From an uncultured Candidatus Rokubacteria bacterium (lineage in GTDB: Bacteria > Methylomirabilota > Methylomirabilia > Rokubacteriales > DASRDR01): a DNA stretch of 64,000 nt. The DNA is taken from positions 1 through 64,000 of the forward strand of contig CAWDVE010000019.1 of assembly GCA_963805625.1 (NCBI GenBank), read 5' to 3'. The notes below the pieces were generated by a model that worked only from the letters and a program-made list of their open reading frames with translations, was not told where the DNA came from and searched no databases. Positions 49,477-63,860 of this stretch are shown here, piece by piece (within the stretch, counting starts at the first letter, position 1; each line of letters begins with the position of its first letter). A program made the position numbers and the translations under genes.

Positions 49477-50427
49477 ATGCGAAGAGTGACGCTCTACAGC
49501 AGCGCGCGCCGGCCGATCCCAGCCGGCCCGTCGGCCCCGGGCGGCCGCGCGGCCGACGGTGCCACGCTGTCCAGCGCTTCACTTCCCGCGGCGCCGCCGC
49601 CCTCCCCGGTTGCCCGGACGCCCGGCGCGCCCTGGCGCCGGCTCTCCCGGCGGCCCGGGCTCCTCCTGGCGGCCGGAAGCGGCCTGCTCGTCCTGATCGC
49701 GGTGACCGTCACGGGGGTCCGGACACCCCTCCCTCGACGCATCACCCAGCAGGACATCGACCAGGCGGTGCTGCACACGCTGGCGACCAAGTCCCTGCCG
49801 TCTCGCGCGGCGAAGGCGTATGCGGTCATCCGGCCCTCCGTCGTCGAGGTGCGAGGGTGGAAGGACGACGAGCGCGCGAAGAAGGGCACCGGGAACGACG
49901 TCGGCACCGGGGTCGTCATCGTGGACAAGGGCATCATCCTGACCAACCTCCACGTGGTGTCGGACGCCCAGCGGGTGGAGGTCGTCTTTGCCGACGGGCT
50001 CACGTCCGAGGCCACGGTCATCTCGGTCAAGCCGGAGCACGATCTCGCCGTGCTCCAGGCGAAGACGATCCCCGACGATCTCGTCCCGGCGACGCTCAGG
50101 TCCACCCAGGGCCTCGCCCCGGGCGACGAGGTGGTCGCCGTGGGCTTTCCCTTCGGCATCGGACCGTCCGCGTCTTCGGGCGTGATCTCCGGGCTTCGCC
50201 GCGAGTTCCACTCGCGGCGCGGCCAACGTCTCCTGACGAATCTCATCCAGTTCGACGCCGCCGCCAATCCGGGGAACTCCGGCGGCCCGCTGGTGACGAT
50301 GGACGGCGAGGTGATCGGCATCGTGACAGGCATCCTGAACCCCACCGACCAGCGGGTGTTCGTCGGCGTCGGGTTCGCGGTGCCCATCGAGAACGCCGCG
50401 TCGGCCGTCGGGCTCTCCCCCTTCTAG
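49477..50427 (+). CDS. Membrane-anchored S1C (HtrA-like) serine protease lacking PDZ
   Basis: LTNLHVV, DLAVL and NPGNSGGPL triad motifs; one TM helix. Confidence 0.9.
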   Translation: MRRVTLYSSARRPIPAGPSAPGGRAADGATLSSASLPAAPPPSPVARTPGAPWRRLSRRPGLLLAAGSGLLVLIAVTVTGVRTPLPRRITQQDIDQAVLHTLATKSLPSRAAKAYAVIRPSVVEVRGWKDDERAKKGTGNDVGTGVVIVDKGIILTNLHVVSDAQRVEVVFADGLTSEATVISVKPEHDLAVLQAKTIPDDLVPATLRSTQGLAPGDEVVAVGFPFGIGPSASSGVISGLRREFHSRRGQRLLTNLIQFDAAANPGNSGGPLVTMDGEVIGIVTGILNPTDQRVFVGVGFAVPIENAASAVGLSPF

Positions 50428-50609
50428 GCCAGAGTGCCGTCCCAACGGATCGGGCGAGGGTTGTCGCCGCGGGTGGCGCCGGGCGGCGCCTTCCGGGGCG
50501 AGGCGAGGATACTCCGAGCGGGGGCCCGGAAGGCACGCCCGGCGACAGGGCCCGCGGTGACTCGCCACGACCAGTCGGATCGGCACTAGCGGGCGCGGGA
50601 GGAGGACCG

Positions 50610-51626
50610 GTGGAGATCCTGGAGCGGGACCGCAGCGAGATCGCGTCGCTCATGGAGCGGATCCTCTACGAGGTGAAGCGGATCGTCGTCGGCCAGGATC
50701 ACTTTCTCGAGCGCGTGCTGGTGGCCGTCCTGGCCGAGGGGCACCTGCTCGTGGAGGGCGTGCCGGGCCTGGCCAAGACGCTGACGGTCAAGACGCTCGC
50801 CCAGACCGTCCGCGGCACGTTCCGGAGGATCCAGTTCACGCCGGACCTCGTGCCAGCGGATCTCGTGGGCACGCGGGTCTACAACCAGCGGACCGGCGAG
50901 TTCAGCACATCGCTCGGTCCCGTCTTCACGAACCTCCTCCTCGCCGACGAGATCAACCGGGCCCCGGCGAAGGTGCAGAGTGCGCTGCTCGAGGTGATGC
51001 AGGAGCGCCAGGTCACGATCGCCGGGGAGACCCACCGGGTCGGCGAGCCGTTCGTGGTGATGGCCACCCAGAATCCGATCGAGACCGAAGGGACCTATCC
51101 ACTTCCCGAGGCTCAGGTCGACCGGTTCATGATGAAGGTCCTGGTCGGGTACCCGAGCGAGGAAGAGGAGTTCGTGATCGTCGAGCGGGTGACGGGTCCC
51201 ACGACGACGGTCGCTCCCGTCGCCACCACCGAGCAGCTCGCCCGGATCCAGCGTGAATGCCGGACCGGGTACGTCGATCCGTCGGTCATCCAGTACGCGG
51301 TCCGGCTCGCCGCCGTGACACGGAACCTCGCGCGGTACGGCCTCGGCGACCTCGCGCGGTACGTGTCGTACGGCGCCAGCCCCCGGGCCTCCATTCACCT
51401 GATCGAGGGTGCCCGCGCGCTCGGGTTCCTCCGGGGTCGCGCCTACGTCCTGCCCGAAGACGTCACCGACCTCGCGCCCGACGTGCTGCGCCACCGGCTC
51501 GTCCTGTCCTACGAGGCCCTCGCCGACGGGATGACCGCCGATCAGCTGGTCCGGCGGATCCTGCACCACGTGCCGGCTCCCGAGAAGCCGCTGGCGACCC
51601 ATGTCAGAGTCGGCGCGCCATCCTGA
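50610..51626 (+). CDS. moxR: MoxR AAA+ ATPase
   Basis: GVPGLAKT, RIQFTPDL, DEINRAPAK, GTYPLPEAQVDRF; GGAGGA RBS. Confidence 0.95.
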   Translation: MEILERDRSEIASLMERILYEVKRIVVGQDHFLERVLVAVLAEGHLLVEGVPGLAKTLTVKTLAQTVRGTFRRIQFTPDLVPADLVGTRVYNQRTGEFSTSLGPVFTNLLLADEINRAPAKVQSALLEVMQERQVTIAGETHRVGEPFVVMATQNPIETEGTYPLPEAQVDRFMMKVLVGYPSEEEEFVIVERVTGPTTTVAPVATTEQLARIQRECRTGYVDPSVIQYAVRLAAVTRNLARYGLGDLARYVSYGASPRASIHLIEGARALGFLRGRAYVLPEDVTDLAPDVLRHRLVLSYEALADGMTADQLVRRILHHVPAPEKPLATHVRVGAPS

Positions 51627-52557
51627 AGAGCTGCTGCGCCGGCTCGAGTGGACGGTGATCAGGCGCCTGGATGGGCTCTTGCAGGGCGACTACCGGACCC
51701 TGTTTCGCGGCGCCGGGCTCGACCTGGCGGACCTGCGCGAGTACCAGTATCACGACGACGTCCGGCACATCGACTGGAACGTGACGGCGCGCCTCGGGAC
51801 GCCCTACGTGCGGGAGTACCACGAGGACCGCGAGATCACCGCGTGGTTCCTGCTCGACGTGACGGCATCGATGGACTTCGGCTCGCGGGGCGCACCCAAG
51901 CGGTCCTCGTCGGCCGAGCTCGTCGGCGTGCTAGCCCGCCTGCTGACGCGCCACGGCAACCGCGTGGGGGCCCTGCTCTATGACGGCCGTCCGCAAGGGG
52001 GGATTGCCGTCATCCCCGCGCGGAGCAGTCGGCGCCATGTGCTCCACCTTCTGCACCGGCTGCTCACCCGCCCGGCCGCAACACGCCCGGCCGTCACGAG
52101 GCTGGTGGACCTGCTCAGCCTGGCTGCCCAGCTCGTCCGGCGCCGGGCCCTCGTCTTCGTCGTCTCCGACTTCATCAGCGCGCCAGGCTGGACGGCGCCC
52201 CTCGGCCACCTCGCGCAGCGCCACGACGTGGTGGCCGTGCGGCTCCTCGACCCCCTGGAGGTCGAGCTCCCGGATCTGGGGCTCCTCGTGGTGCAGGACG
52301 CCGAGACCGGGGAGCAGCTGCTCGTGGACACCCACGACCGAGCGTTCCGCCAACGCTTCGCGGCCGCCGCCGCGCGGCGGGACGCGGCCCTTCGCGCGGC
52401 CTTCGGCGAGGCCGGCGTGGACGCTCTCGAGCTGTCGACCGACGATGACCTGGTCCAGGCCATCCTGAGATTCGCGGACCTCCGCAAGCGGCGCGGCCAG
52501 CTGGCAGCGGCGGGCGGACTGCCGGACCACCTGGAGCCCGCGGGGCGACGCGCATGA
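51601..52557 (+). CDS. DUF58 protein
   Basis: LREYQYHDDVRHIDWNVTAR, VSDF. Confidence 0.93.
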   Translation: MSESARHPEELLRRLEWTVIRRLDGLLQGDYRTLFRGAGLDLADLREYQYHDDVRHIDWNVTARLGTPYVREYHEDREITAWFLLDVTASMDFGSRGAPKRSSSAELVGVLARLLTRHGNRVGALLYDGRPQGGIAVIPARSSRRHVLHLLHRLLTRPAATRPAVTRLVDLLSLAAQLVRRRALVFVVSDFISAPGWTAPLGHLAQRHDVVAVRLLDPLEVELPDLGLLVVQDAETGEQLLVDTHDRAFRQRFAAAAARRDAALRAAFGEAGVDALELSTDDDLVQAILRFADLRKRRGQLAAAGGLPDHLEPAGRRA

Positions 52558-53600
52558 GCTTCATCTGGCCCGACATGCTCTGGCTCTTGCTGACGGTGCC
52601 CGCGCTCGTCGTCGGGTACGTTCTGCTGGTGCGTCGGAGGAAGCGGGCGGCGCTCCGCTACGCGAGCCTCCACCTCGTGCGGGAGGCCCTCGGTCCGGGT
52701 CAGGCCTGGCGGCGCCACCTGCCGCCGCTCCTGTTCCTGCTGGCCCTTGTCTCGATGCTCCTCGCGGTGGCGCGGCCGAGCGCCGTCGTCACCCTGCCCT
52801 CCCACCACGACACGGTCATCCTCGCGATGGACGTCTCCGGCAGCATGCGGACCACCGACGTCCTCCCGAACCGGCTGGTCGCCGCCCAGGCCGCGGCGCG
52901 GGCCTTCGTCGCCGAGCAGCCACGCCGCACCCGGATCGGGGTGGTCGCGTTCGCGGGGACGGCGGCGGTCGTGCAGGCGCCGACCAGCAACCGGGAGGAG
53001 ATCCTCGCCGCGATCGATCGCTTCCAGGTCCAGCGGGCGACCGCCATCGGCAGCGCGATCCTGGTCTCGCTGAAGATCATCTTCCCGGACATCGAGTTCG
53101 ACCTCCGTTCGTCGGACCCGCGGCCCGACGCCGGGCAGCGCGGCGCTCCGCTCGCCTCTGGTGGCGAGCCCAGCCGCCCGCCGTTTCAGCCGGTGCCGCC
53201 CGGATCCCACGAATCCTCCGTCATCATCCTCCTGACAGACGGCCGGACCACCACGGGCCCCGATCCCCTCGAGTCGGCCCGCATGGCTGCCGCGCGCGGC
53301 GTGCGCGTCTTCACGGTCGGGGTGGGCACCAAGGAGGGCGGGACGCTCTCGTATGGGGGCTGGTCGATGCGCGTGAGCCTCGACGAGGACGCGCTCAAGG
53401 CGATCGCCGCCACGACGCACGGCGAGTACTACCACGCGGGCACGGCCGCCGACCTGATGAAGGTCTACCAGCGCCTGAACGCCCGGGTCGTGATGGAGCG
53501 GAAGGACACTGAGATCACGGCGGTGTTCTCGGCGGCGGCGCTGGTCTTCGCGGTCGCCTCGGGGCTCCTGTCCGTCCTCTGGTACCACCGGATCCTGTAG
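52554..53600 (+). CDS. vWA domain membrane protein (BatA-like)
   Basis: DVSGSM MIDAS, TAIG, LLTDG; terminal TM helices. Confidence 0.93.
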   Translation: MSFIWPDMLWLLLTVPALVVGYVLLVRRRKRAALRYASLHLVREALGPGQAWRRHLPPLLFLLALVSMLLAVARPSAVVTLPSHHDTVILAMDVSGSMRTTDVLPNRLVAAQAAARAFVAEQPRRTRIGVVAFAGTAAVVQAPTSNREEILAAIDRFQVQRATAIGSAILVSLKIIFPDIEFDLRSSDPRPDAGQRGAPLASGGEPSRPPFQPVPPGSHESSVIILLTDGRTTTGPDPLESARMAAARGVRVFTVGVGTKEGGTLSYGGWSMRVSLDEDALKAIAATTHGEYYHAGTAADLMKVYQRLNARVVMERKDTEITAVFSAAALVFAVASGLLSVLWYHRIL

Positions 53601-54136: not shown

Positions 54137-55067
54137 TCACCGCGACCGTACCCGTGGCCCGATCTGCGGGACCGGGCGCGCCTGGGCGGCCGCCGCGAAG
54201 ATCTCCATGAACGCGCGGGCGGCGGCGCTCAGCCGGCGTCGCGCGTGGTGGATCAGGTGGAAGTGCCGCACGATCCGGAGGCCGCGGACCCGGAGCGGCC
54301 GCAACCGGCCCGTCGCCCGCTCCCCCTGGATGGCGTAGACGGACACGAACGCCACGCCGAGCCCGGCCAGCACGCCCTGCTTGATCGCCTCGGTGTGCGG
54401 CAGCACCATGCCCGGGCGGTAGGCCACCCCGGCGCCGGCGAGCGCCCGCTCGGTCACCTGGCGGGTCGCCGAGCCAGGCTCCCGCAGCAGAAGCGGTTGG
54501 CCCGCCAGCTCGGCCGGACGGATGTCACGGCGGCGGGCCCACGCATGCGTCGGGCCGACGACGAGCACGAGCTCATCCTCCACGCGGGCCGCCAGGCTCG
54601 CCTCGGCCGGACTCGTCTCGCCGTCGCCGACCACCCCGAGGTCGAGCCCGCCCGCCCGCACCAGCGCCTCGATCTGCGCGGAGTTCCCGAGCTGCAGGGC
54701 CACCTCGATCGCGGGGTAGCGCTGCCGGAAGGCGCCGAGCACCCCGGGCACGACGTAGATCCCCGGGGTCGTGCTCGCCCCGATGGCCAGCGTACCCCGC
54801 TGCAGCCCCTGAAGATCGGCGATGGCGTGCCGGGCGTCCGTGAGCGTGGCGAACAGACGGGTCGCATGGTCCTCGAGGATTCGGCCGGCCTCCGTCAGGT
54901 GGACGACCCGGCCGAGGCGGTCGAAGAGGCGGGCGCCCAGCGCGCCCTCGAGCTCCCGGACGTGCTGGGAGAGGGGCTGGCTGGCTCAGATGGAGCGTCT
55001 CGGCGGCGTGCCGGAAGCTCCGGGCCCGGGCGACGGCCAGGAAGGCTTCGAATTGCCGCAGCGTCAT
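54137..55067 (-). pseudogene. CysL-like LysR regulator with a +1 frameshift
   Basis: MTLRQFEAF HTH; LSQPA/LSQHVRELE is broken in a C4 run at 54973-54976; IGASTTPG, REPGSATR; length 931 = 3n+1. Confidence 0.85.
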
Positions 55068-55210
55068 GGTTCGGGTTTCCCTTATCGAACCGATCTGAAT
55101 ATCCGATTGGACCTTATCGCACTGCCTCGCCGACAGTGCAAGGGCGGGGCGCTCCCGGGTGGGCGTCCCTTCGAGCCCCGGCGCCGCGGCCATCAGCGAG
55201 GAGGTCCACG

Positions 55211-55942
55211 ATGATCTTCCAGCAGTTCCTGTATCCCCAGACCGGGTGCGCCGCCTACGTCTTCGGGTGAGTGAGCCATGGGTCGTCTACGGTCGTAGAC
55301 CCACACGCCGACGACCTCGAGCGCTACCTGGAGTTCGCCGCCCTCAAGGGCACCAAGATCACGCACGTCCTCGACACGCACATCCAGGCGGACCATCGGT
55401 CGGGAGGCCGTGAACTCGCGGCCCGCACGGGCGCCGCCTACTGTCTCCACGAGGCTGCGGACGTGGCGTTCCCGTTCACGCCGCTCGCCGATGGCCAGGA
55501 GCTCGTCTGCGGGAACGTCGTGATCCGCGTGCTCCACACGCCCGGCCATACGCCCGAGAGCCTCTGTCTCGTCGTCACCGACAAGACGCGCGGGCCGGAG
55601 CCGTGGTTCGTGCTAACGGGCGACACGCTCTTCGTCGGCGCCGTCGGGCGGCCGGACCTCTCCGGCGCGGCCGAGGCGAGCGCCCGGGCGCTCCATCGGA
55701 GCCTCCGGCGGCTCCTCACCCTGCCAGACCACACCGAGATCTACCCGACCCACTTCTCGGGCGCCGCGTGCGGGAAGGGGATGAGCGGCAAGCCCATGTC
55801 CACGCTGGCCTTCGAGAAGCGGTTCAACCCGTTCCTGGGGATGGCGGGCGAGGACGAGTTCGTCGCGGCCCTGACGCGAGACCTTCCCCCGATGCCCGCG
55901 GACATGGCGGCCACGCTCCGCGCCAACCAGGGCCGCGCGTGA
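55211..55942 (+). CDS. MBL-fold persulfide dioxygenase-like protein, candidate selenoprotein (TGA at codon 20)
   Basis: GAGG RBS; MIFQQFLYPQTGCAAYVFG-TGA-VSHGSSTVVDP in one frame; THIQADH, TPGHTPES, GDTLF, GRPDL. Confidence 0.8.
55271..55306 (+). promoter_or_regulatory. Bacterial SECIS-like hairpin
   Basis: GTCTAC-GGTC-GTAGAC stem-loop extended by TGG/CCA and GTG/CAC; the G-initiated loop begins 20 nt after the TGA. Confidence 0.7.
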
Positions 55943-56024
55943 CCGGCAGGCCGCCCCGGCGCGGCCGGCCGACCGGCGCGCCGGGGCGGGGCTGCGCCGG
56001 GCCAGGCTCCGCGAGGCGCCCCGG

Positions 56025-57284
56025 GTGAGTTCCGCGGCCGGAGCGGGCGCCATCCGGCTGGGGCTGGGGGCGAACCTCGGCCAGTTCTCGCTCCTCGTCT
56101 TGATCAATGCCTTCGTCGGGGCGATGGTCGGCCTGGAGCGCACCGTGGTCCCGCTCATCGGCGAGCGGGAGTTCGGCCTCACGTCGAAGACCGCGATCGT
56201 CTCGTTCATCGTGAGCTTCGGCGTGACCAAGGCGCTGCTGAACCTGGTGGCGGCCCGCCTGGCGGAGCGGTTCGGGCGGAAGCCGATCCTAGTGGCGGGG
56301 TGGCTGCTCGGCCTTCCGGTGCCCTTCATGATCATGTGGGCGCCGTCCTGGGGCTGGATCGACGCCGCCAACGTCCTGCTCGGCGCGAACCAGGCCTTCG
56401 CGTGGTCCATGACGGTGATCATGAAGGTCGACTTGGTCGGACCGCAGCGGCGGGGGCTCGCCCTCGGCCTCAACGAGTTCGCCGGGTACCTGTCCGTGGC
56501 CCTGTCGGCGTGGGCCACCGGGGAGATCGCCAGCCGCTACTCGCTCCGGCCCGAGCCCTTCTACTACGGCGGGATTGTCGCCGTCCTGGGACTCGGATTG
56601 TCGGCGCTGTTCGTTCGGGAGACGCGCGATCACGTCGCGCTCGAGATCGCGCAGAACGCGCCTCGGCACGGCCCGGTCGGGCCTGCGCTCTCCTTCAAGC
56701 GCGCGTTCGCCGTCACGACCTGGCGCGACCGGAACCTCGCCGCCGCGTGCCAGGCGGGGCTCGTCAACAACCTGAACGACGGGATGTCCTGGGGGATCTA
56801 CCCGCTCTTCTTCGGGAGCTACGGCCTCGGCGTCGCGGCGATCGGCGTCATCAAGGCCGTATACCCGGGAGTCTGGGGCGCGCTGCAGGTCATCACGGGA
56901 CCGCTCAGCGACCGGATCGGCCGCAAGGGGCTGATCGCCGGGGGGATGCTCGTCCAGGCCGGAGGCATCTGGCTCACGGTCCTGATGCCAGCCTATCCGT
57001 CGTGGATCGCGGGCGCCGTCCTCCAGGGGCTCGGGACGGCGATGGTCTACCCGACCCTGCTCGCGGTCATCGGGGACGTCGCGCACCCCTCGTGGCGCGC
57101 GACCAGCTACGGCGTCTACCGATTGTGGCGGGACCTCGGCTATGCGGTGGGTGCGCTTCTTGCGGGACTCATCGCCGACTGGCTGGGCATGGCCGCGGCG
57201 ATCCACGTCGTGGCCATGCTCACCCTACTGTCGGGCCTCGTCGTCCTCGTCCGCATGCGGGAGACCCTGGGCGGTCTTCGGTGA
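56025..57284 (+). CDS. MFS transporter
   Basis: About 12 TM helices; ARLAERFGRK and GPLSDRIGRK motif A; GVYRLWRD. Confidence 0.92.
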   Translation: MSSAAGAGAIRLGLGANLGQFSLLVLINAFVGAMVGLERTVVPLIGEREFGLTSKTAIVSFIVSFGVTKALLNLVAARLAERFGRKPILVAGWLLGLPVPFMIMWAPSWGWIDAANVLLGANQAFAWSMTVIMKVDLVGPQRRGLALGLNEFAGYLSVALSAWATGEIASRYSLRPEPFYYGGIVAVLGLGLSALFVRETRDHVALEIAQNAPRHGPVGPALSFKRAFAVTTWRDRNLAAACQAGLVNNLNDGMSWGIYPLFFGSYGLGVAAIGVIKAVYPGVWGALQVITGPLSDRIGRKGLIAGGMLVQAGGIWLTVLMPAYPSWIAGAVLQGLGTAMVYPTLLAVIGDVAHPSWRATSYGVYRLWRDLGYAVGALLAGLIADWLGMAAAIHVVAMLTLLSGLVVLVRMRETLGGLR

Positions 57285-57374
57285 TGCCGCCCCCTCCGTG
57301 ATGCGGCGGGCCGACGGGTCCATGGACAACGGATCGCGCGTCGATCGCCGACCTGGTCCGGAGCCAGCAGACAC

Positions 57375-57638
57375 ATGACAGATGGCGCCGAGAAGATGAT
57401 CGCCCGCGCCCCACTCCACTACTCGGGGTCGGCCGACGGCTACGCGGAGTACTGGAGTCCGGTCATTCGCCCCCTCGCCCGACGGTTGCTCGATGCGCTG
57501 CCGTGGGATCGAGCAGGCCGGATCCTCGACGTCGGCACGGGGACGGGCGCGCTCATCCCCGACATCCTCGGCCTCGCGCCAACGGCCCGCGTCGTCGGGA
57601 TCGACCCGTTGCGGAACCGGTGTCAAGGTCCGCGGTGA
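57375..57638 (+). pseudogene. Class I SAM methyltransferase N-terminal remnant
   Basis: ILDVGTGTG, VVGID, then truncated. Confidence 0.7.
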
Positions 57639-58441
57639 TGCTCATGCTCGCCTCCTATCTCGCCGAGAACACGCGGCCTACGTATGAGCGCCTCGCGACA
57701 TGGCTCACCGCGCGCCTCGGCGAGCCCGCGTCCCTGCTCGGCGGCGTGGCTTGGGAGGAGCGTGTGGCGATGCTGGACGACGGGCGGGTGCACGTCGCAT
57801 TTATCTGCGGCTGGTCGTACATCCAACGCCACGACCGGCCGGCGCGGCCGGTCGACCTCTTGTGCGCGCCAGTCATGGCCCCGCCCCGGTATGAGGACCG
57901 GCCGATCTACTTCACGGACGTGGTCGTCCGCTACGACAGCCCCCTGTGGTCTTTCGCGGATCTCCGGGGTCAGCGCTACGCGTACAACGACCGCAGCTCG
58001 CACTCCGGCTACAACGTCCCCAGAGATTACCTGCTCCGGGTCGGTGAGACCCGCGGCTACTTCGGTCGCGCGGTCGCCTCGGGGTCTCACCAGACCTCGA
58101 TCCGGATGGTCGAAGCGGGCGAGGTCGACGCCTCGGGGATCGACAGCACGATGCTGGACGTCGAGCGCCAGCGGCGTCCCGACGTGAGCACGACGCTGCG
58201 CACCGTGGCCGTCCTCGGGCCATCGCCGATTCGGCCGATCATCGTGACCCGTGCACTCCCCGAGAATCAGAGAGAGCGGCTCCGCGCCGCACTCCTCACG
58301 ATGCACGAGGATGCCGAGGGTCGCGCGATCCTGGGCGACGGACTGATCGCCCGCTTCGTCCGCGTGCAGGACGCCGACTACGACCCGATCCGCGCGATGG
58401 TCGCCCGGGCGGTCGAGGTCGGCTTCATGGAGCTACGGTGA
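57638..58441 (+). CDS. PhnD-like phosphate/phosphonate-binding protein
   Basis: AFICG, DLRG..AYND..SHSGY, SGSH, IDS, DYDPIR; no signal peptide. Confidence 0.85.
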   Translation: MLMLASYLAENTRPTYERLATWLTARLGEPASLLGGVAWEERVAMLDDGRVHVAFICGWSYIQRHDRPARPVDLLCAPVMAPPRYEDRPIYFTDVVVRYDSPLWSFADLRGQRYAYNDRSSHSGYNVPRDYLLRVGETRGYFGRAVASGSHQTSIRMVEAGEVDASGIDSTMLDVERQRRPDVSTTLRTVAVLGPSPIRPIIVTRALPENQRERLRAALLTMHEDAEGRAILGDGLIARFVRVQDADYDPIRAMVARAVEVGFMELR

Positions 58442-58697
58442 CCCGCGCGGGCCGGACGCCGGCTCATCGGGTCGCGTCCCAGCACCTGAAGGAGATGAAT
58501 CACTCGCTTGAGCCCATGGCACCGCACCTGTCAAGATGTTGGCCGCGTTCATGGGCGAAGAGGAGAGGCTGACGACACTGAACGCGAAGTATATGAACCG
58601 CCATCGGCGGCGTGCCATCGCCTCGTGTCGACGCCCATTGACGCTTCTCGCGCGCCCGGCGTAGAGTCTCGCTACCGTGACACTGGGGGGCTCAGCC

Positions 58698-59718
58698 GTG
58701 ACAAGGCGTGGCCGCGGGCCCGGCAGTCGTCGTCCCTTCTGGTGGTGCGGCGTCGCACTGGTCGCGTTGCTCACCGGCCCGGCGCCGCCCGGTCGAAGCG
58801 CCGTCGCGGCCGAGCGCACTGGATCCGTCAAGATCGGGGCACTGACGCAATCTTGGGGTGCGACACCCGAGATGGTCGGCCTCCGTGACGGGCTGGTGGC
58901 GCTGGGATATCGAGAGGGCGAGCAGTTCGTCATCGGCGTCCGGTTCACGCAAGGGGACATCGCCGCGCTTCCGGCGGCGGCCCACGACCTGGTCCAGTCC
59001 GGGGTGGACCTCATTTTCGCCATCGATGTGACCGCGGCGAGGGCGGCGCAGCTGGCAACCAACCGGATTCCGATCGTCGTCGGCCTCCTTCGTGGGCGAT
59101 CCGGTCGAACTGGGGCTCGTCCAGAGCTACGCTCGGCCCGGCGGCAATATCACCGGTGTCCTCCATGAGGACACCGACTTGAGCGCGAAGCGCCTGGAAA
59201 TCTTCAAGGAGATGCTGTCGGGCCTGAAGCGCGTCCTGTTCCCCTATGATCCAAACGATACGGACGCGGCGGCGGCCGCACGCCTGTACCGCGCCGCCGC
59301 CCGGCAGCTCGGCCTCGTTCTCGTCGAGAAGCCCGTGCGGACCGAGGAGGAGGCGCGGACGACCCTCGCAAAGCTCCGGAAGGGCGAGGTGGATGGGATC
59401 ATCGCCCCGTCGAACCTGTCGCTGAACATTCCCGGCGTCGTCCTGGACGCCACGTCGCAGCGCGCCATCCCGACCATGTTCACCGGAGCGTTCTACGTCG
59501 AGCGCGGCGGGCTGGTCAGCTACGGTCCAGATTTCTACGAATCGGGCCGCCAGGCGGCCCGCCTGATGGACAAGATCGTCAAAGGCGAGAATCCGGGGCG
59601 GATCCCGGTCGAGGCGAACCCGAAGATGGAGCTGGCGATCAACATGAAGGTCGCGAGGGCCCTGAAGCTCACGATCTCGCCAGCGGTCTCGCAGCGCGCC
59701 AACCGGCTCATCGAGTGA
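58698..59718 (+). pseudogene. ABC substrate-binding protein (Trp/Tyr type), frameshifted paralog
   Basis: Similar throughout to 59824-60837; frame changes near 59075-59095 between PIV and VGDPVELG. Confidence 0.8.
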
Positions 59719-59823
59719 TGGCGACGTGGGGAGGCGGACGTCAAGAAGCGACGAGGCGGCGATGCGCGAGACGCTGGGTGCCGTGCGCTGATGCGACCCA
59801 CCGGGATTGAAGCGTGGTAAGGT

Positions 59824-60837
59824 TTGATCGCGGCGTCCGCTAGAGCGCTGCGCCCTCGCTGGCAGTGCGGGCTGGCCCTCCTTTGGCTGTTCGCGGGCAC
59901 CGCCTTCGACGGCCGGAGCGTGGACGCGGCCGAGCGCACGGGACCTGTCAAGATCGGGGCCCTGACGCATTCCTGGGGTGTGACACCCCAGATGGTTGGC
60001 CTCCGGGACGGCCTCCTCGCGCTGGGCTACCGAGAGGGCGAGCAGTTTGTCATCGGCGTCAGGTTCACGCAAGGGGACGCGAGCCTCCTTCCCGAGGCGG
60101 CCCAGGGCCTGATCCAGGACGGGGCAGACATTCTTTTCCCCACGGACGCGAACTCGGCGAGGGCGGCCCAGAAGGCCACGACCCGGGTCCCCATCGTCTT
60201 TGCCGCAGTCGTGGGCGACCCCGTCGAGTTGGGGCTCGTGCGGAGCTTTGCCCGGCCAGGGGGCAACGTCACCGGGGTGACCGACGGCGACCTCGAGCTG
60301 AACCCAAAGCGCCTGGAGATCTTCAAGGACCTGATTCCGGGCTTGAAGCGCGTGCTGCTTTGCTACGATCCAAGCGATCCGCACGCGGCAGCGGCCGCGC
60401 GTGCGTACCGCGACGGGGCCCGTCAACTCGGCGTGGTGCTCGTGGAGAAGCCGGTACGGACCGAGGCGGAGGCGCGAGCGACCCTCGCCAGGCTCCGGAA
60501 GGCCGAGGTCGACGGGATCCTCACCCCGCCGACGACCTCGCTGAACATCCCTGGCGTCGTGCTGGAAGCCACGGCGGAGCGCAGGCTCCCGGCGATGTTC
60601 AACGCCGCGTTCATGGTCGAGCGCGGCGGCCTCGTGAGCTACGGCCCGGACTGGTACGAAACGGGCCGCCAGGCCGCGCGCCTGGTCGACAAGATCGTGA
60701 AAGGTGAGGATCCCGGACAGATCCCGGTGGAGGTGAACCCGAAGGTCGAGCTCGCGATCAACATGAAGACGGCCAAGGCGTTGAGACTCTTGATTCCACC
60801 CAGTGTCCTGCAGCGTGCCAACCGGCTCATCGAATAA
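59824..60837 (+). CDS. ABC substrate-binding protein (Trp/Tyr type)
   Basis: GDPVELGLVRSFARPGGNVTG, GGLVSYGP, INMKTAKAL; start uncertain. Confidence 0.9.
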   Translation: MIAASARALRPRWQCGLALLWLFAGTAFDGRSVDAAERTGPVKIGALTHSWGVTPQMVGLRDGLLALGYREGEQFVIGVRFTQGDASLLPEAAQGLIQDGADILFPTDANSARAAQKATTRVPIVFAAVVGDPVELGLVRSFARPGGNVTGVTDGDLELNPKRLEIFKDLIPGLKRVLLCYDPSDPHAAAAARAYRDGARQLGVVLVEKPVRTEAEARATLARLRKAEVDGILTPPTTSLNIPGVVLEATAERRLPAMFNAAFMVERGGLVSYGPDWYETGRQAARLVDKIVKGEDPGQIPVEVNPKVELAINMKTAKALRLLIPPSVLQRANRLIE

Positions 60838-60861
60838 CGGCCCGGTGGAGAGGAGGATGTG

Positions 60862-61422
60862 ATGAACGCTAGGACGCGAGCGAGAACATCGGTGCTTATC
60901 GGCGCACTGCTGGTCGCTGCACTCGGTGGAGGGGGCGCCGGCGTGGCGACCGCGCTGGAGATCGGCAAGCCGGCGCCCGACTTCACGCTCCCGAGCACGA
61001 CCGGCGAGAAGATCAGCCTGAGTCAGTACCGGGGCAAGCTGGTCCTCCTCGAGTTCTATGGCGCTGCGTTCGTTCCCACCTGAGCGGATAACCTGTCGGC
61101 CAGGAAGGCCGACTACAGCAAGTTCAACGAGCTGGGTGTCCAGATCCTCGGCATCAGCTCCGACAACCCCTTCGCCCAGAAGACCTTCGCCGATTCCCTG
61201 AAGCTGGCGTTCCCGCTCCTCAGCGACTGGCCCGACCTGAAGGTCATCCGGAGCTACGGGATCCTGGGCGCGAGCAACATGATGGCCAGTCGGTCGTTCT
61301 TCCTGGTGGATCAGCAGGGGATCGTCCGGCAACAGTGGCTGCTCGGCGCCGCTGGGGGCACCACCGTCATGCCCAGCGAGCCGATCCTCAAGGCGGTGCA
61401 GGAGCTCAAGGGCAAGCCGTAA
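60862..61422 (+). CDS. Exported AhpC/TSA peroxiredoxin-like protein, candidate selenoprotein (TGA at codon 74)
   Basis: IGKPAPDFTL...EFYGAAFVPT-TGA-ADNL...GISSD...FPLLSD...RSFFLVDQQG, open to TAA 61420-61422; no Cys codon. Confidence 0.88.
61093..61118 (+). promoter_or_regulatory. Bacterial SECIS-like hairpin
   Basis: GTCGGCC-AGGAA-GGCCGAC perfect 7-bp stem; the loop begins 18 nt after the TGA. Confidence 0.75.
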
Positions 61423-61424
61423 GG

Positions 61425-61988
61425 GTGGACGTGCGCCCGGGGCCTCGCGGGGTTCTGGCGGGCCTCCTCGCCTCTCTGACCCTGGTGGCGCCGCCGGCGG
61501 TCGGCCAGTCCGCCGGCGCGCTCCAGCGGCTCGGTCTCGCGGGGTATCCTCCTGACACGCGGCCTCCAGGATTCAGTGGCGCGACGGTGGACGGCTTCCC
61601 GCTGTCGCTGGAGAGCTTGCGGAGCCGTGTCGTCCTGCTGAATTTCTGGGCCAGCTGGTGCCTCGAGTGCCGTGCTGAGCTGCCGGTCCTCGAGCAGCTT
61701 CACCGCGATTACACTCCGCGGGGTCTCACGGTCGTCGCGGTGAACTTCCGGGACGAGCCTGGGACTGTTCGGCAGTACGCTCGCGAGCTCGGTCTCACGA
61801 TGCCGCTCGTCCTGGACTCTGCCGGCGCCATCAGGCAATCGTACGGGGTGATCGGGTTTCCGACCAGCTTCCTGGTCGCGCGGGACGGACGGGCCGTGGC
61901 CCGAGCGATCGGCCCGCGGGAGTGGGCCGGCCCCGAGGCCCGTGCGCTCATCCAGTCGCTGCTGATGGAGCCGACCGGACGCCGCTGA
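61425..61988 (+). CDS. TlpA-family thiol-disulfide reductase
   Basis: Signal/TM segment, LNFWASWCLECRAELP, GFPTSF, GPREW. Confidence 0.9.
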   Translation: MDVRPGPRGVLAGLLASLTLVAPPAVGQSAGALQRLGLAGYPPDTRPPGFSGATVDGFPLSLESLRSRVVLLNFWASWCLECRAELPVLEQLHRDYTPRGLTVVAVNFRDEPGTVRQYARELGLTMPLVLDSAGAIRQSYGVIGFPTSFLVARDGRAVARAIGPREWAGPEARALIQSLLMEPTGRR

Positions 61989-62607: not shown

Positions 62608-63222
62608 ATGCGCCATAGGGGCAACGAGGGTTATACCGAGGAAGCGGACGCGCTCACGAGACAGTACGAGAGCGTTCGTTTCGCCGACGTGCACGGCCCG
62701 GTCTTGCATCTGCTCCCGACCGTGCCCAGCTCTGTGCTCGACATCGGGGCCGGGACCGGACGCGATGCCGCGGCCCTGGTCGGGATGGGGCATCGAGTGG
62801 TGGCGGTGGAACCCACCGCGGCCCTCCGCGATCGGGCGGCCCTCTTACATCCGTCCTCCCACATTGAATGGATCGACGATTCCCTTCCGCACCTCGCACG
62901 CCTCATGAGACGCGGGGACCGGTTCGACGTCGTGATGCTCACCGCCGTCTGGATCCATCTCGACCCGCAGCAACGTCGGGAGGCGATGCCGAGAGTCGCC
63001 AGTCTCCTCCGCCCAGGCGGTGTCCTGCTGCTGACGCTTCGTCATGGCCCTGCCCCGCCCGGCCGACGCCGCCTCTTTGAGACGTCGGCGGATGAAACGA
63101 TCGCCCTGGCCGGCGTCCACGGCTTGCACGTCGCCCTGAAGGTCGAACACCAACCAGATTTCTACGGCCGCCGGGAGATAACGTGGACTTCCCTCGCCTT
63201 TCTCAGCGAGAGGTCAACCTGA
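62608..63222 (+). CDS. Class I SAM-dependent methyltransferase
   Basis: VLDIGAGTGRDA, DDSLP, LLRPGG, LRHGP. Confidence 0.88.
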   Translation: MRHRGNEGYTEEADALTRQYESVRFADVHGPVLHLLPTVPSSVLDIGAGTGRDAAALVGMGHRVVAVEPTAALRDRAALLHPSSHIEWIDDSLPHLARLMRRGDRFDVVMLTAVWIHLDPQQRREAMPRVASLLRPGGVLLLTLRHGPAPPGRRRLFETSADETIALAGVHGLHVALKVEHQPDFYGRREITWTSLAFLSERST

Positions 63223-63257: not shown

Positions 63258-63860
63258 ATGGACGAATGTTGCGCGGTCAGAGACGTTCCGCGCGAGCAAC
63301 GGCGCGTGCTCTACGCGGTCCTGTGGATCAACGCCGCCATGTTTCTGGCTGAATCACTCGGCGGGCTCATGGCCCACTCGACGGCATTGGTCGCTGATTC
63401 CGTCGACATGCTCGGCGACGCCATCGTATACGGATTCAGCCTCTACGTGATCCATCGGGGCACCACCTGGAAAGCGCGAGCCGCATTGCTCAAAGGCATC
63501 ATCATGGCGGCCTTCGGGATCGGTGTGCTCATCCAGGTGGCCGTGAAGATCGTTCAAGGCCTCACCCCGACCGTCGAAGTCATGGGCGCGATCGGCGCCC
63601 TGGCATTTGCCGCGAATCTCTTTTGCCTGGTGCTCCTACGGCGACGCCGTGACGACGATATCAACATGCGGTCGGCGTGGGTCTGCTCACGCAACGACGT
63701 GATCGGCAACGCGGCGGTCCTCGCGGCCGCTGCCTTGGTGGCCGTGACGAGGTCGGCATGGCCGGACATCCTCATCGGGCTGCTCATCGCTGGGGTCTTC
63801 GGCCGCTCGGCAGTCCAGATTATCCGCGAGGCGTCGCGCGCGGTTGTTCTGTCAGCCTGA
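63258..63860 (+). CDS. Short CDF-type cation transporter
   Basis: MDECC, ADSVDMLGD, NMRSAWVCSRND; 5-6 TM helices. Confidence 0.88.
   Translation: MDECCAVRDVPREQRRVLYAVLWINAAMFLAESLGGLMAHSTALVADSVDMLGDAIVYGFSLYVIHRGTTWKARAALLKGIIMAAFGIGVLIQVAVKIVQGLTPTVEVMGAIGALAFAANLFCLVLLRRRRDDDINMRSAWVCSRNDVIGNAAVLAAAALVAVTRSAWPDILIGLLIAGVFGRSAVQIIREASRAVVLSA

Follow-up and report, generated by a model that had tools for sequence, protein, structure and literature searches.

We describe here a neighbourhood with two genes very likely recoded for selenocysteine (Sec), at positions 54137 to 61988 of a 64,000-nucleotide stretch (the window) from an uncultured Candidatus Rokubacteria bacterium. The window opens contig C19 of a 7.27-Mb genome with 70% GC, labelled G000; C denotes its contigs, G with another number a relative, and L a fetched locus. 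A lysR gene on the minus strand is divergent from genes for a metallo-β-lactamase-fold protein (MBL), a major facilitator superfamily (MFS) transporter, a PhnD-like binding protein, two solute-binding proteins (SBP1 and SBP2), a peroxiredoxin (Prx)-like protein and a TlpA-type thioredoxin, all on the plus strand; the order and strands are as given by a first-pass annotation of this DNA. We call the LysR, Sec-MBL and MFS genes cassette A, and the Sec-Prx-like protein, TlpA and PF04392 SBP genes cassette B. The first-pass annotation proposed a single functional neighbourhood, with the caveat that these may be two independent modules. It is the caveat that our analysis favours: with a probability of roughly 0.7, these are two conserved cassettes, joined locally in one genus and now eroding, and likely two systems rather than one pathway.

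Both in-frame UGAs very likely encode Sec, as they are conserved in relatives, aligned with Cys and followed by a hairpin in a genome that holds the Sec machinery. The MBL gene (55211..55942, plus strand) carries its UGA at 55268..55270, residue 20; TGA stands at the identical codon in 32 of 33 genome loci, and Cys in 74 of 80 metagenome loci. In the Prx gene (60859..61422, plus strand), the UGA at 61081..61083 falls at the peroxidatic position. TGA occupies that codon in 38/38 aligned rows, an internal TGA is present in all 50 matches within the order, and the peroxidatic residue is Cys in 91 of 120 database homologues. G000 encodes tRNA-Sec, selA, selB (split) and selD, the last with its own TGA. 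Directly 3′ of each UGA lies a hairpin resembling a selenocysteine insertion sequence (SECIS), at 55285..55300 (plus strand; 6-bp stem, loop starting with G) and at 61095..61113 (plus strand; 7-bp stem, 5-nt loop), both with a G in the first two loop positions; an early loop G belongs to the bacterial SECIS consensus (PMC13188914, partial text). In 19 distinct sequences the Prx stem has 95.5% of its cells paired, compared with at most 49.6% for slid controls, and 3 cells are changed on both sides. The MBL stem has 5 cells changed on both sides in the window's register, and in most relatives outside the genus its best fold lies about 5 nt further downstream. Covariation is modest for both hairpins (6/500 and 3/500 shuffles), and coding constraint limits what it can show. 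Gene callers were expected to split both genes; in databases the MBL is instead cut N-terminally (78 of the 120 best matches lack the N-terminus, and none of the 120 has U), while the Prx TGA is rendered as W in 26 of 120. The Cys forms of the MBL carry glyoxalase II-like names. A metagenome MBL from an otherwise Cys-type group (L176:702-1427) reads TGA at codon 20, and Sec may there have arisen separately.

We thus turn to whether the two cassettes form one unit. Among 183 genomes of the order, Sec-MBL is present in 55 (54 flagged by TGA plus the frameshifted G008) and Sec-Prx in 36; both occur in 13, against 10.8 expected. As related genomes do not count independently and many are incomplete, this comparison is descriptive. 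A and B thus show no statistical association. Within these 13 genomes the cassettes are linked in three (G000, G004 and G008), all of genus g1. They are unlinked across about 10 kb or more on each side in G018, G035, G043 and G062, and stand 666 kb apart on one contig in G097; G017, G067, G112 and G172 rule out a direct junction only, and G028 is uninformative. A conserved operon of the SAO or Tso kind would keep its Sec genes together from one lineage to the next; here linkage is found in 3 of 13 genomes and in one genus. A shared regulon through the LysR box is likewise rejected, with the box in one of 25 cassette B loci without MBL. These results lend no support to the single functional neighbourhood, and A and B are instead separately conserved.

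The junction nonetheless has a history. The first-pass annotation held that its proposal would be refuted by modules never linked elsewhere; in G004 they are contiguous, as lysR|MBL-MFS-SBP-Prx-TlpA, and in G011 an SBP stub persists after the MFS gene. In the window itself, 30 nt left over from an MFS 3′ end, stop codon included, lie immediately 5′ of SBP2 (59762..59791, plus strand). This scar aligns to the MFS ends of G004 and G011 with scores of 41 and 45, which none of 3000 random pieces attains, and to the window's own MFS end with a score of 27, which 15 of 3000 attain. In the MFS tree, G004 splits first, below G011 and G000/G005 (SH-aLRT 95 and 92). Given the scar and this branching order, an A-B junction inherited in this clade is the simplest reading, and the window looks like a mosaic of a G005-type left half, a C11-like SBP1 and a G004/G008-type right half. 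We consider it quite probable that the cassettes were once joined in an ancestor within genus g1 and have been drifting apart. Upstream of SBP1 there is one sigma-70-like promoter match (58638..58667, plus strand) where 0.6 would be expected by chance. Its −10 hexamer recurs upstream of the SBP in G004, G011 and G008, a weak hint that cassette B may have its own transcription start.

The proximity of two Sec genes carries little weight in this genome. A rule-based census of G000 accepted a stop codon if coding signal lay to both sides of it and a hairpin and a Cys-type motif were present. It returned 35 TGA, 2 TAG and 0 TAA candidates (pools of 2173, 2184 and 263); the 35 probably include a few false positives, and some known genes were missed. 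When 33 genes are placed at random, 0.83 pairs are expected within 6 kb and at least one pair occurs in 57% of trials; a second close pair, 0.56 kb apart, exists on contig C4. The two recoded genes reported by the first-pass annotation (TGAs at 55268 and 61081) are thus real, while their spacing is not unusual, and two Sec genes within 6 kb are rejected as a sign of selection. One Methylomirabilota metagenome-assembled genome (MAG) has 63 selenoprotein genes (PMC13188914, partial text). Further Sec candidates with strong hairpins lie in G000 at C10:1384878, C10:725132, C17:531270 and C1:30045.

In cassette A, the Sec-MBL is a 243-residue protein that appears to be a stand-alone CstB-type persulfide dioxygenase (PDO) domain. 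Its best PDB matches are the MBL-rhodanese fusions 3TP9 (E 1.5e-48) and 3R2U (2e-41), with TM scores of 0.91-0.92 to these two versus at most 0.69 to glyoxalases II. The Fe(II) triad H57/H113/D138 is present in 33/33 genome matches, the C187-G188 loop in 33/33 genome and 79/80 metagenome matches, and C13 in 33/33 genome matches and in all 77 metagenome matches that cover residue 13. Residue 59 is Gln in 32 of 33 genome matches and in 74 of 78 N-terminally cut database entries, and in 0 of 42 full-length Cys entries; H59Q thus tracks the Sec form. This substitution would remove one ligand of the canonical MBL two-metal site, and the Cys-form MBLs retain all seven dimetal ligands. There is no fused rhodanese domain and no equivalent of the catalytic C408 (the MFS gene follows instead), so that the protein resembles the PDO domain of CstB but is not a CstB. 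Against glyoxalase II it scores 78 versus 200.8 bits (TIGR03413) and has HxQxDH in place of HxHxDH, and no model of NCBIfam 20.0 passes its cut-off.

The MFS transporter (56025..57284, plus strand; PF07690) is the fixed partner of the MBL: the pair is found in 75 of 80 metagenome loci, mostly with Cys forms, and the lysR|MBL-MFS arrangement recurs throughout the Sec-MBL loci of the order. The LysR (54137..55067, minus strand) belongs to a YeiE/CysL-like group. Its regulatory domain matches that of YeiE (7ERP, E 1e-23), six of the eight residues of the YeiE sulfite pocket are identical, and all four intact orthologues score below the cut-offs of NF040786 (220-248 versus 250) and NF040889 (185-195 versus 480). 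Between lysR and the MBL gene, a 40-nt operator/−35 block (55080..55119, plus strand), our predicted LysR box, is conserved in 31 of 33 aligned intergenic regions; its profile score of 51.5 makes it the sole site in G000, the next best scoring 25.7. In two other genera, a Cys/Met pyridoxal-phosphate enzyme fused to a NifU-like domain lies inside or adjoining cassette A (L049:10149-11903 and L044:6852-8579), which fits a persulfide-generating partner. G000 also has 24 rhodanese-domain matches, 4 of them with TGA.

From these sequence features, persulfide-dioxygenase chemistry seems a reasonably likely function for cassette A. The MBL would bind a single Fe(II) at H57/H113/D138, and C187 would take sulfane sulfur from a thiol persulfide, as C201 does in CstB, followed by oxidation with O2. 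The C187 adduct might then be released by C13, by Sec20 (perhaps of another subunit) or by a trans-acting rhodanese of the genome. The MFS protein would likely export the sulfite or thiosulfate formed, and the YeiE-like LysR would sense a sulfur oxyanion and induce the MBL-MFS pair. The role of Sec20 is the least certain step, since the residue would be out of the iron's reach within one subunit if the geometry of CstB holds. Selenium is here a catalytic residue, and nothing points to it as a substrate. The cytoplasmic detoxification with export that the first-pass annotation envisaged is thus supported in its sulfane part, by the CstB-type fold and residues and the pairing with MFS, while nothing speaks for its selenium part.

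Cassette B is held together by its own gene pairing. The Prx gene is followed by that of a TlpA/ResA-like thioredoxin with WCxxC and a hydrophobic N-terminal segment (61425..61988, plus strand) and preceded by SBP2 (59824..60837, plus strand), a PF04392 protein of the Prx-linked clade with a signal-peptide-like N-terminus and an uncertain start codon. This SBP clade has 47 matches in the 251 genomes from the phylum, of which we fetched 30 loci, the window among them; Sec-Prx is present in 30/30 and TlpA in 28/30. In a quick tree that excluded rows with stops or with fewer than 250 aligned residues, 25 of the 26 SBPs adjacent to a Prx cluster together, and about 30 paralogues fall outside that group (SH-aLRT 94). 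All 31 genomes of the order with the clade fall among the 36 with Prx, where 6.1 would be expected. The pairing is kept in several different gene orders, and it extends to two betaproteobacteria-labelled MAGs in which the Prx has Cys; when genomes were scanned with a Cys-form Prx, only 3 loci came up. Flanking genes vary between loci. Neither a permease nor an ATPase adjoins SBP2, and no cognate one was found in the 43 flanking genes scanned (60 called; 18 of 19 loci), whose transport genes are a single sugar-type permease and an ABC system on the opposite strand that has an SBP of its own; partner genes could lie elsewhere in the genome. The clade has the specific motifs SWGPTP and N(I)PG, and a search of the ESM Atlas gave only generic PF04392 clusters. 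SBP2 is therefore a fixed partner of the Prx and no mere filler. The SBPs beside Cys-Prx (L194:6923-7849 and L195:2403-3332) bear a vicinal Cys-Cys in a clade-specific loop, a feature absent from the 25 SBPs beside Sec-form Prx. G000 also holds a second SBP-Sec-Prx copy (C11:169606-170186 to 171186; L111:8607-10186), 71-73% identical and without TlpA, with IS21-type genes after it. In G043 a gene of the SBP56 (selenium-binding) family is divergent from the Prx-SBP cassette (L107:8176-9564).

The Prx-like protein has a signal-peptide-like N-terminus, is predicted to be exported and contains no Cys at all. In a structure model built on the Cys-form homologue P0010 it takes a Prx fold (TM 0.71-0.77) in which the Cys/Sec sits in the first turn of helix 2, and the catalytic Arg is present in the window and in 119 of 120 homologues. 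Its motif is GxxFxP(T/V)U. Among the homologues, Pro at C-7 occurs in 0 of 120, and the Thr position is A in 55 and S in 23.

We regard a TlpA-recycled envelope reductase as a fairly probable function for cassette B. TlpA, once exported and likely fed by a DsbD/CcdA-type membrane protein (one PF02683 gene in G000), would restore the secreted Prx-fold enzyme, a 1-Sec reductase, to its reduced state. The dedicated SBP, which lacks a transporter, would likely select or present the substrate of the Prx; that substrate may not be a peroxide, as the PXXXT motif is missing. An extracytoplasmic relay, as suggested by the first-pass annotation, is thus retained in the form of an exported Prx/TlpA pair, with peroxide itself doubtful. 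Direct SBP-Prx binding was weakly predicted for the native Cys-form pair of L194, on alignments that we made ourselves, with a score of 0.60 versus 0.03 for the best of three controls, runs agreeing in at least 94% of contacts and partner pLDDT of at least 85. Of 157 solved complexes, 116 attain the mark used, as do 2 of 215 mismatches; scores that pass at or below 0.60 comprise 18 of the 157 solved complexes and both mismatches, so that such a pass is more often wrong unless binding is likely beforehand. The fixed gene pairing raises that prior, and we hold the modelled contact to be a tentative proposal, somewhat on the doubtful side.

Several observations weigh against our reading, in its separation of the cassettes or in the chemistry assigned to them. 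G004 retains the junction, and G000 retains it at least in part. The linked copy of G008 is a different, second B paralogue directly behind lysR, and in G039, of another family, the LysR type and its box lead a methyltransferase-Prx-Prx-TlpA-SBP array from which MBL is absent. Up to three separate B-LysR associations thus hint at a shared stress signal. The lysR gene is possibly dead in the window's strain, its frameshift being matched by sequencing run X1. Neither a gene for sulfide:quinone oxidoreductase nor one for rhodanese is among the neighbours of cassette A, the YeiE specificity residue E145 is aligned to G or D in these LysRs, and the Prx lacks the Pro and Thr of PXXXT (G67 and V71 here). 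In addition, CstB is inactive without its rhodanese Cys C408 (PMC12934615, partial text). The G039 locus (L053:6842-12626), in which both Prx are Sec-Prx, also holds an FGE-family gene, with MerB-like genes nearby.

The alternatives can be weighed against this evidence. A single LysR-controlled operon of six genes, coupling cytoplasmic persulfide oxidation and export to an envelope selenoenzyme for exported or incoming sulfur species, of which the window would be a degraded copy, would account for the contiguous, same-strand and tightly spaced cluster of G004, for the MFS-tail scar before SBP2 and for cassette B adjoining this LysR type in G008 and sitting under its box in G039; a simple scan also gave no terminator-like site between MBL and SBP1. 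A and B co-occur at chance level, however, and 42 of the 55 genomes with Sec-MBL, many of them incomplete, gave no match to Sec-Prx at the applied threshold. Of the 25 B loci without MBL, 24 do not have the box, a separate −10-like element precedes the SBP even in G004, and not one of the 80 metagenome MBL loci, many of them short, shows B. We thus consider one operon quite improbable. The MBL may, on the other hand, be a hydrolase working through a thiol or selenol, or an enzyme that handles selenium (acting on selenopersulfides, for example), accompanied by a selenium-sensing LysR and a PhnD-like protein that binds a selenium oxyanion. The best NCBIfam match of the LysR is indeed the selenium-metabolism-associated NF040786, the PhnD-like protein weakly matches TIGR04553, and the Cys-form MBLs, named glyoxalase II-like in databases, have their seven dimetal ligands intact. 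Neither of the two cut-offs is reached, though, H59Q in the Sec forms spares the PDO triad, the C187-G188 loop is a feature specific to CstB, and most relatives are Cys forms adjoining the same MFS, which leaves this reading improbable.

Cassette B could also be an ordinary exported peroxiredoxin with its thioredoxin, of the PprX/TlpA type, with the SBP as a hitch-hiker from a family that has about 50 copies in each genome. The Prx fold, the near-invariant Arg and the PprX/TlpA precedent (PMC3322552, partial text) are all compatible with it, as are the 50 matches to PF04392 in G000. The SBPs beside the Prx are, however, one clade rather than random paralogues, 31 of 31 genomes with that clade have the Prx, the pairing survives with Cys-Prx in the betaproteobacteria-labelled MAGs and in several gene orders, and the Pro at C-7 is found in none of the homologues. 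We find this somewhat unlikely. As for plain stops or decay in a degenerating island, two frameshifts and one deletion do lie in the island, but TGA holds its codon across several families, aligns with Cys elsewhere and precedes a hairpin, with selA, selB, selD and tRNA-Sec present; plain stops are refuted by this conservation, and the chance that decay explains the codons is negligible. A bolder joint reading extends our own. Cassette B would be an undescribed envelope system in which an orphan SBP docks directly on a Prx-fold selenoenzyme and delivers a specific oxidised small molecule other than a peroxide, with TlpA as the reductant, so that the SBP would serve an enzyme and not a transporter; cassette A would represent a new family of selenoproteins, with Sec20 and C13 taking the place of the rhodanese missing relative to CstB; and one LysR would repeatedly recruit both. 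We think this unlikely as a whole. We thus retain two conserved cassettes, joined locally, as the preferred reading.

The rest of the window bears on the state of the locus. Near 54973, within a run of C, the lysR gene has a +1 frameshift, and its intact orthologue in G005 is 92.9% identical. At that site, contigs of runs X2 and X4 are one base shorter and X1 agrees with the window. SBP1 (58677..59718, plus strand; PF04392) has a +1 frameshift near 59079-59082, where X4 is one base shorter and X1 again agrees; X1 may be the window's own source sample. The first-pass annotation mentions neither frameshift. The selB gene (G000:C21:223609-225488) is present in two frames, split in a C/G homopolymer run beside selA and tRNA-Sec, which suggests indel errors in the G000 assembly. 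The lysR frameshift may thus be a recent pseudogene mutation or an assembly error, and that of SBP1 may likewise be real or an error. SBP1 is closest to the SBP of the C11 copy, with a DNA identity of 86.6% to that paralogue versus 77.9% to the G008 orthologue of SBP2. Between MFS and SBP1 lie a methyltransferase remnant (57375..57638, plus strand), with about 760 bp deleted relative to G005 and the junction near 57610, and the gene of the PhnD-like protein (57638..58441, plus strand; PF12974). The latter gene is an accessory of cassette A in G005, G008 and G015; its product has no signal peptide or hydrophobic N-terminus and falls below the cut-offs of TIGR03431 (PhnD; 94 versus 261 bits) and TIGR04553 (putative selenate; 60 versus 250). 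An Rfam scan of the window gave nothing at gathering scores. An ordinary cluster of a trypsin-like protease, a MoxR AAA ATPase, DUF58 and vWA genes at 49477-53600 is unrelated to the cassettes. Past TlpA, a methyltransferase gene (62608-63222) and a cation-efflux gene (63258-63860) are found again beside one or other cassette in G008, G020 and G062, as though a common pool of genes were being reshuffled.

The interest of this locus lies in its parts and not in the neighbourhood, which is a local arrangement in a selenoprotein-rich lineage. A Sec-containing, persulfide-dioxygenase-like family appears to be present in 55 of 183 genomes, hidden in databases as N-terminally cut 'glyoxalases'. The evolution of Sec at residue 20 would make the unexplained C20 of CstB likely redox-active, and H59Q with the invariant C13 suggests how a rhodanese-free enzyme might turn over. 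The fixed trio of Prx-like protein, TlpA and SBP has an altered active site and lacks a transporter; should the predicted contact hold, it would put an SBP to a new use. By titles and the beginnings of abstracts, we found no literature on the Sec-MBL or on cassette B, some recent selenoprotein surveys lying outside this coverage; neither family was found in the available, possibly incomplete, text of PMC13326102, PMC12013277 and one BSepDB supplement. An MBL-fold family is absent from the 119 selenoprotein families in Table 1 of PMC13188914 (partial text).

Our comparison with known systems starts from CstB of Staphylococcus aureus, a persulfide dioxygenase-rhodanese fusion in which C201 undergoes self-S-sulfonation, and C20, about 29 Å from the iron, is persulfidated or sulfonated with its significance unexplained (PMC12934615, partial text). 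The Sec-MBL shares the fold, and in an alignment with 3R2U its H57/H113/D138 correspond to H56/H119/D145 of CstB, C187-G188 to C201-G202, and U20 to C20. It differs in having no rhodanese or pseudorhodanese domain, Sec at residue 20, C13 in place of the active-site Q13 and Gln in place of H58, and in being paired with an MFS protein and a LysR. YeiE is a sulfite-sensing LysR (PMC8931317, partial text) with YeiH as its partner (PMC12880088, partial text). The LysR described here keeps S96, N126, S127, R191, S195 and T197, and yet has T at S97 and G or D at E145, scores far under the NF040889 cut-off and is divergent from an enzyme-transporter pair. In the Caulobacter ScsB-TlpA-PprX pathway for envelope peroxide, TlpA reduces PprX, and the Pro and Thr of the Prx motif are termed absolutely conserved (PMC3322552, partial text). 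Cassette B likewise combines an exported Prx-fold protein with a TlpA-type thioredoxin, while it has Sec rather than Cys, no resolving Cys, no PXXXT, and adjacent genes that include a dedicated PF04392 SBP. Bacterial Sec-peroxiredoxins of PF00578 with TxxU have been described, as have the redox selenoprotein gene clusters SAO and Tso (PMC13188914, partial text). The peroxidatic UGA and its downstream hairpin are common to these Sec-peroxiredoxins and cassette B, whose motif is GxxFxP(T/V)U and not PxxxTxxU, and unlike SAO and Tso the window's Sec pair is not conserved as an operon. Finally, the PF04392 amino-acid ABC binding proteins 3LKV, 3LFT and 6HNI bind Trp, Tyr and Phe (PMC10443332, partial text). 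The SBP of cassette B shares their family and fold (E 1e-38), and is set apart by its clade's SWGPTP and N(I)PG motifs and by flanking genes without a permease or ATPase of its own among the 43 scanned.

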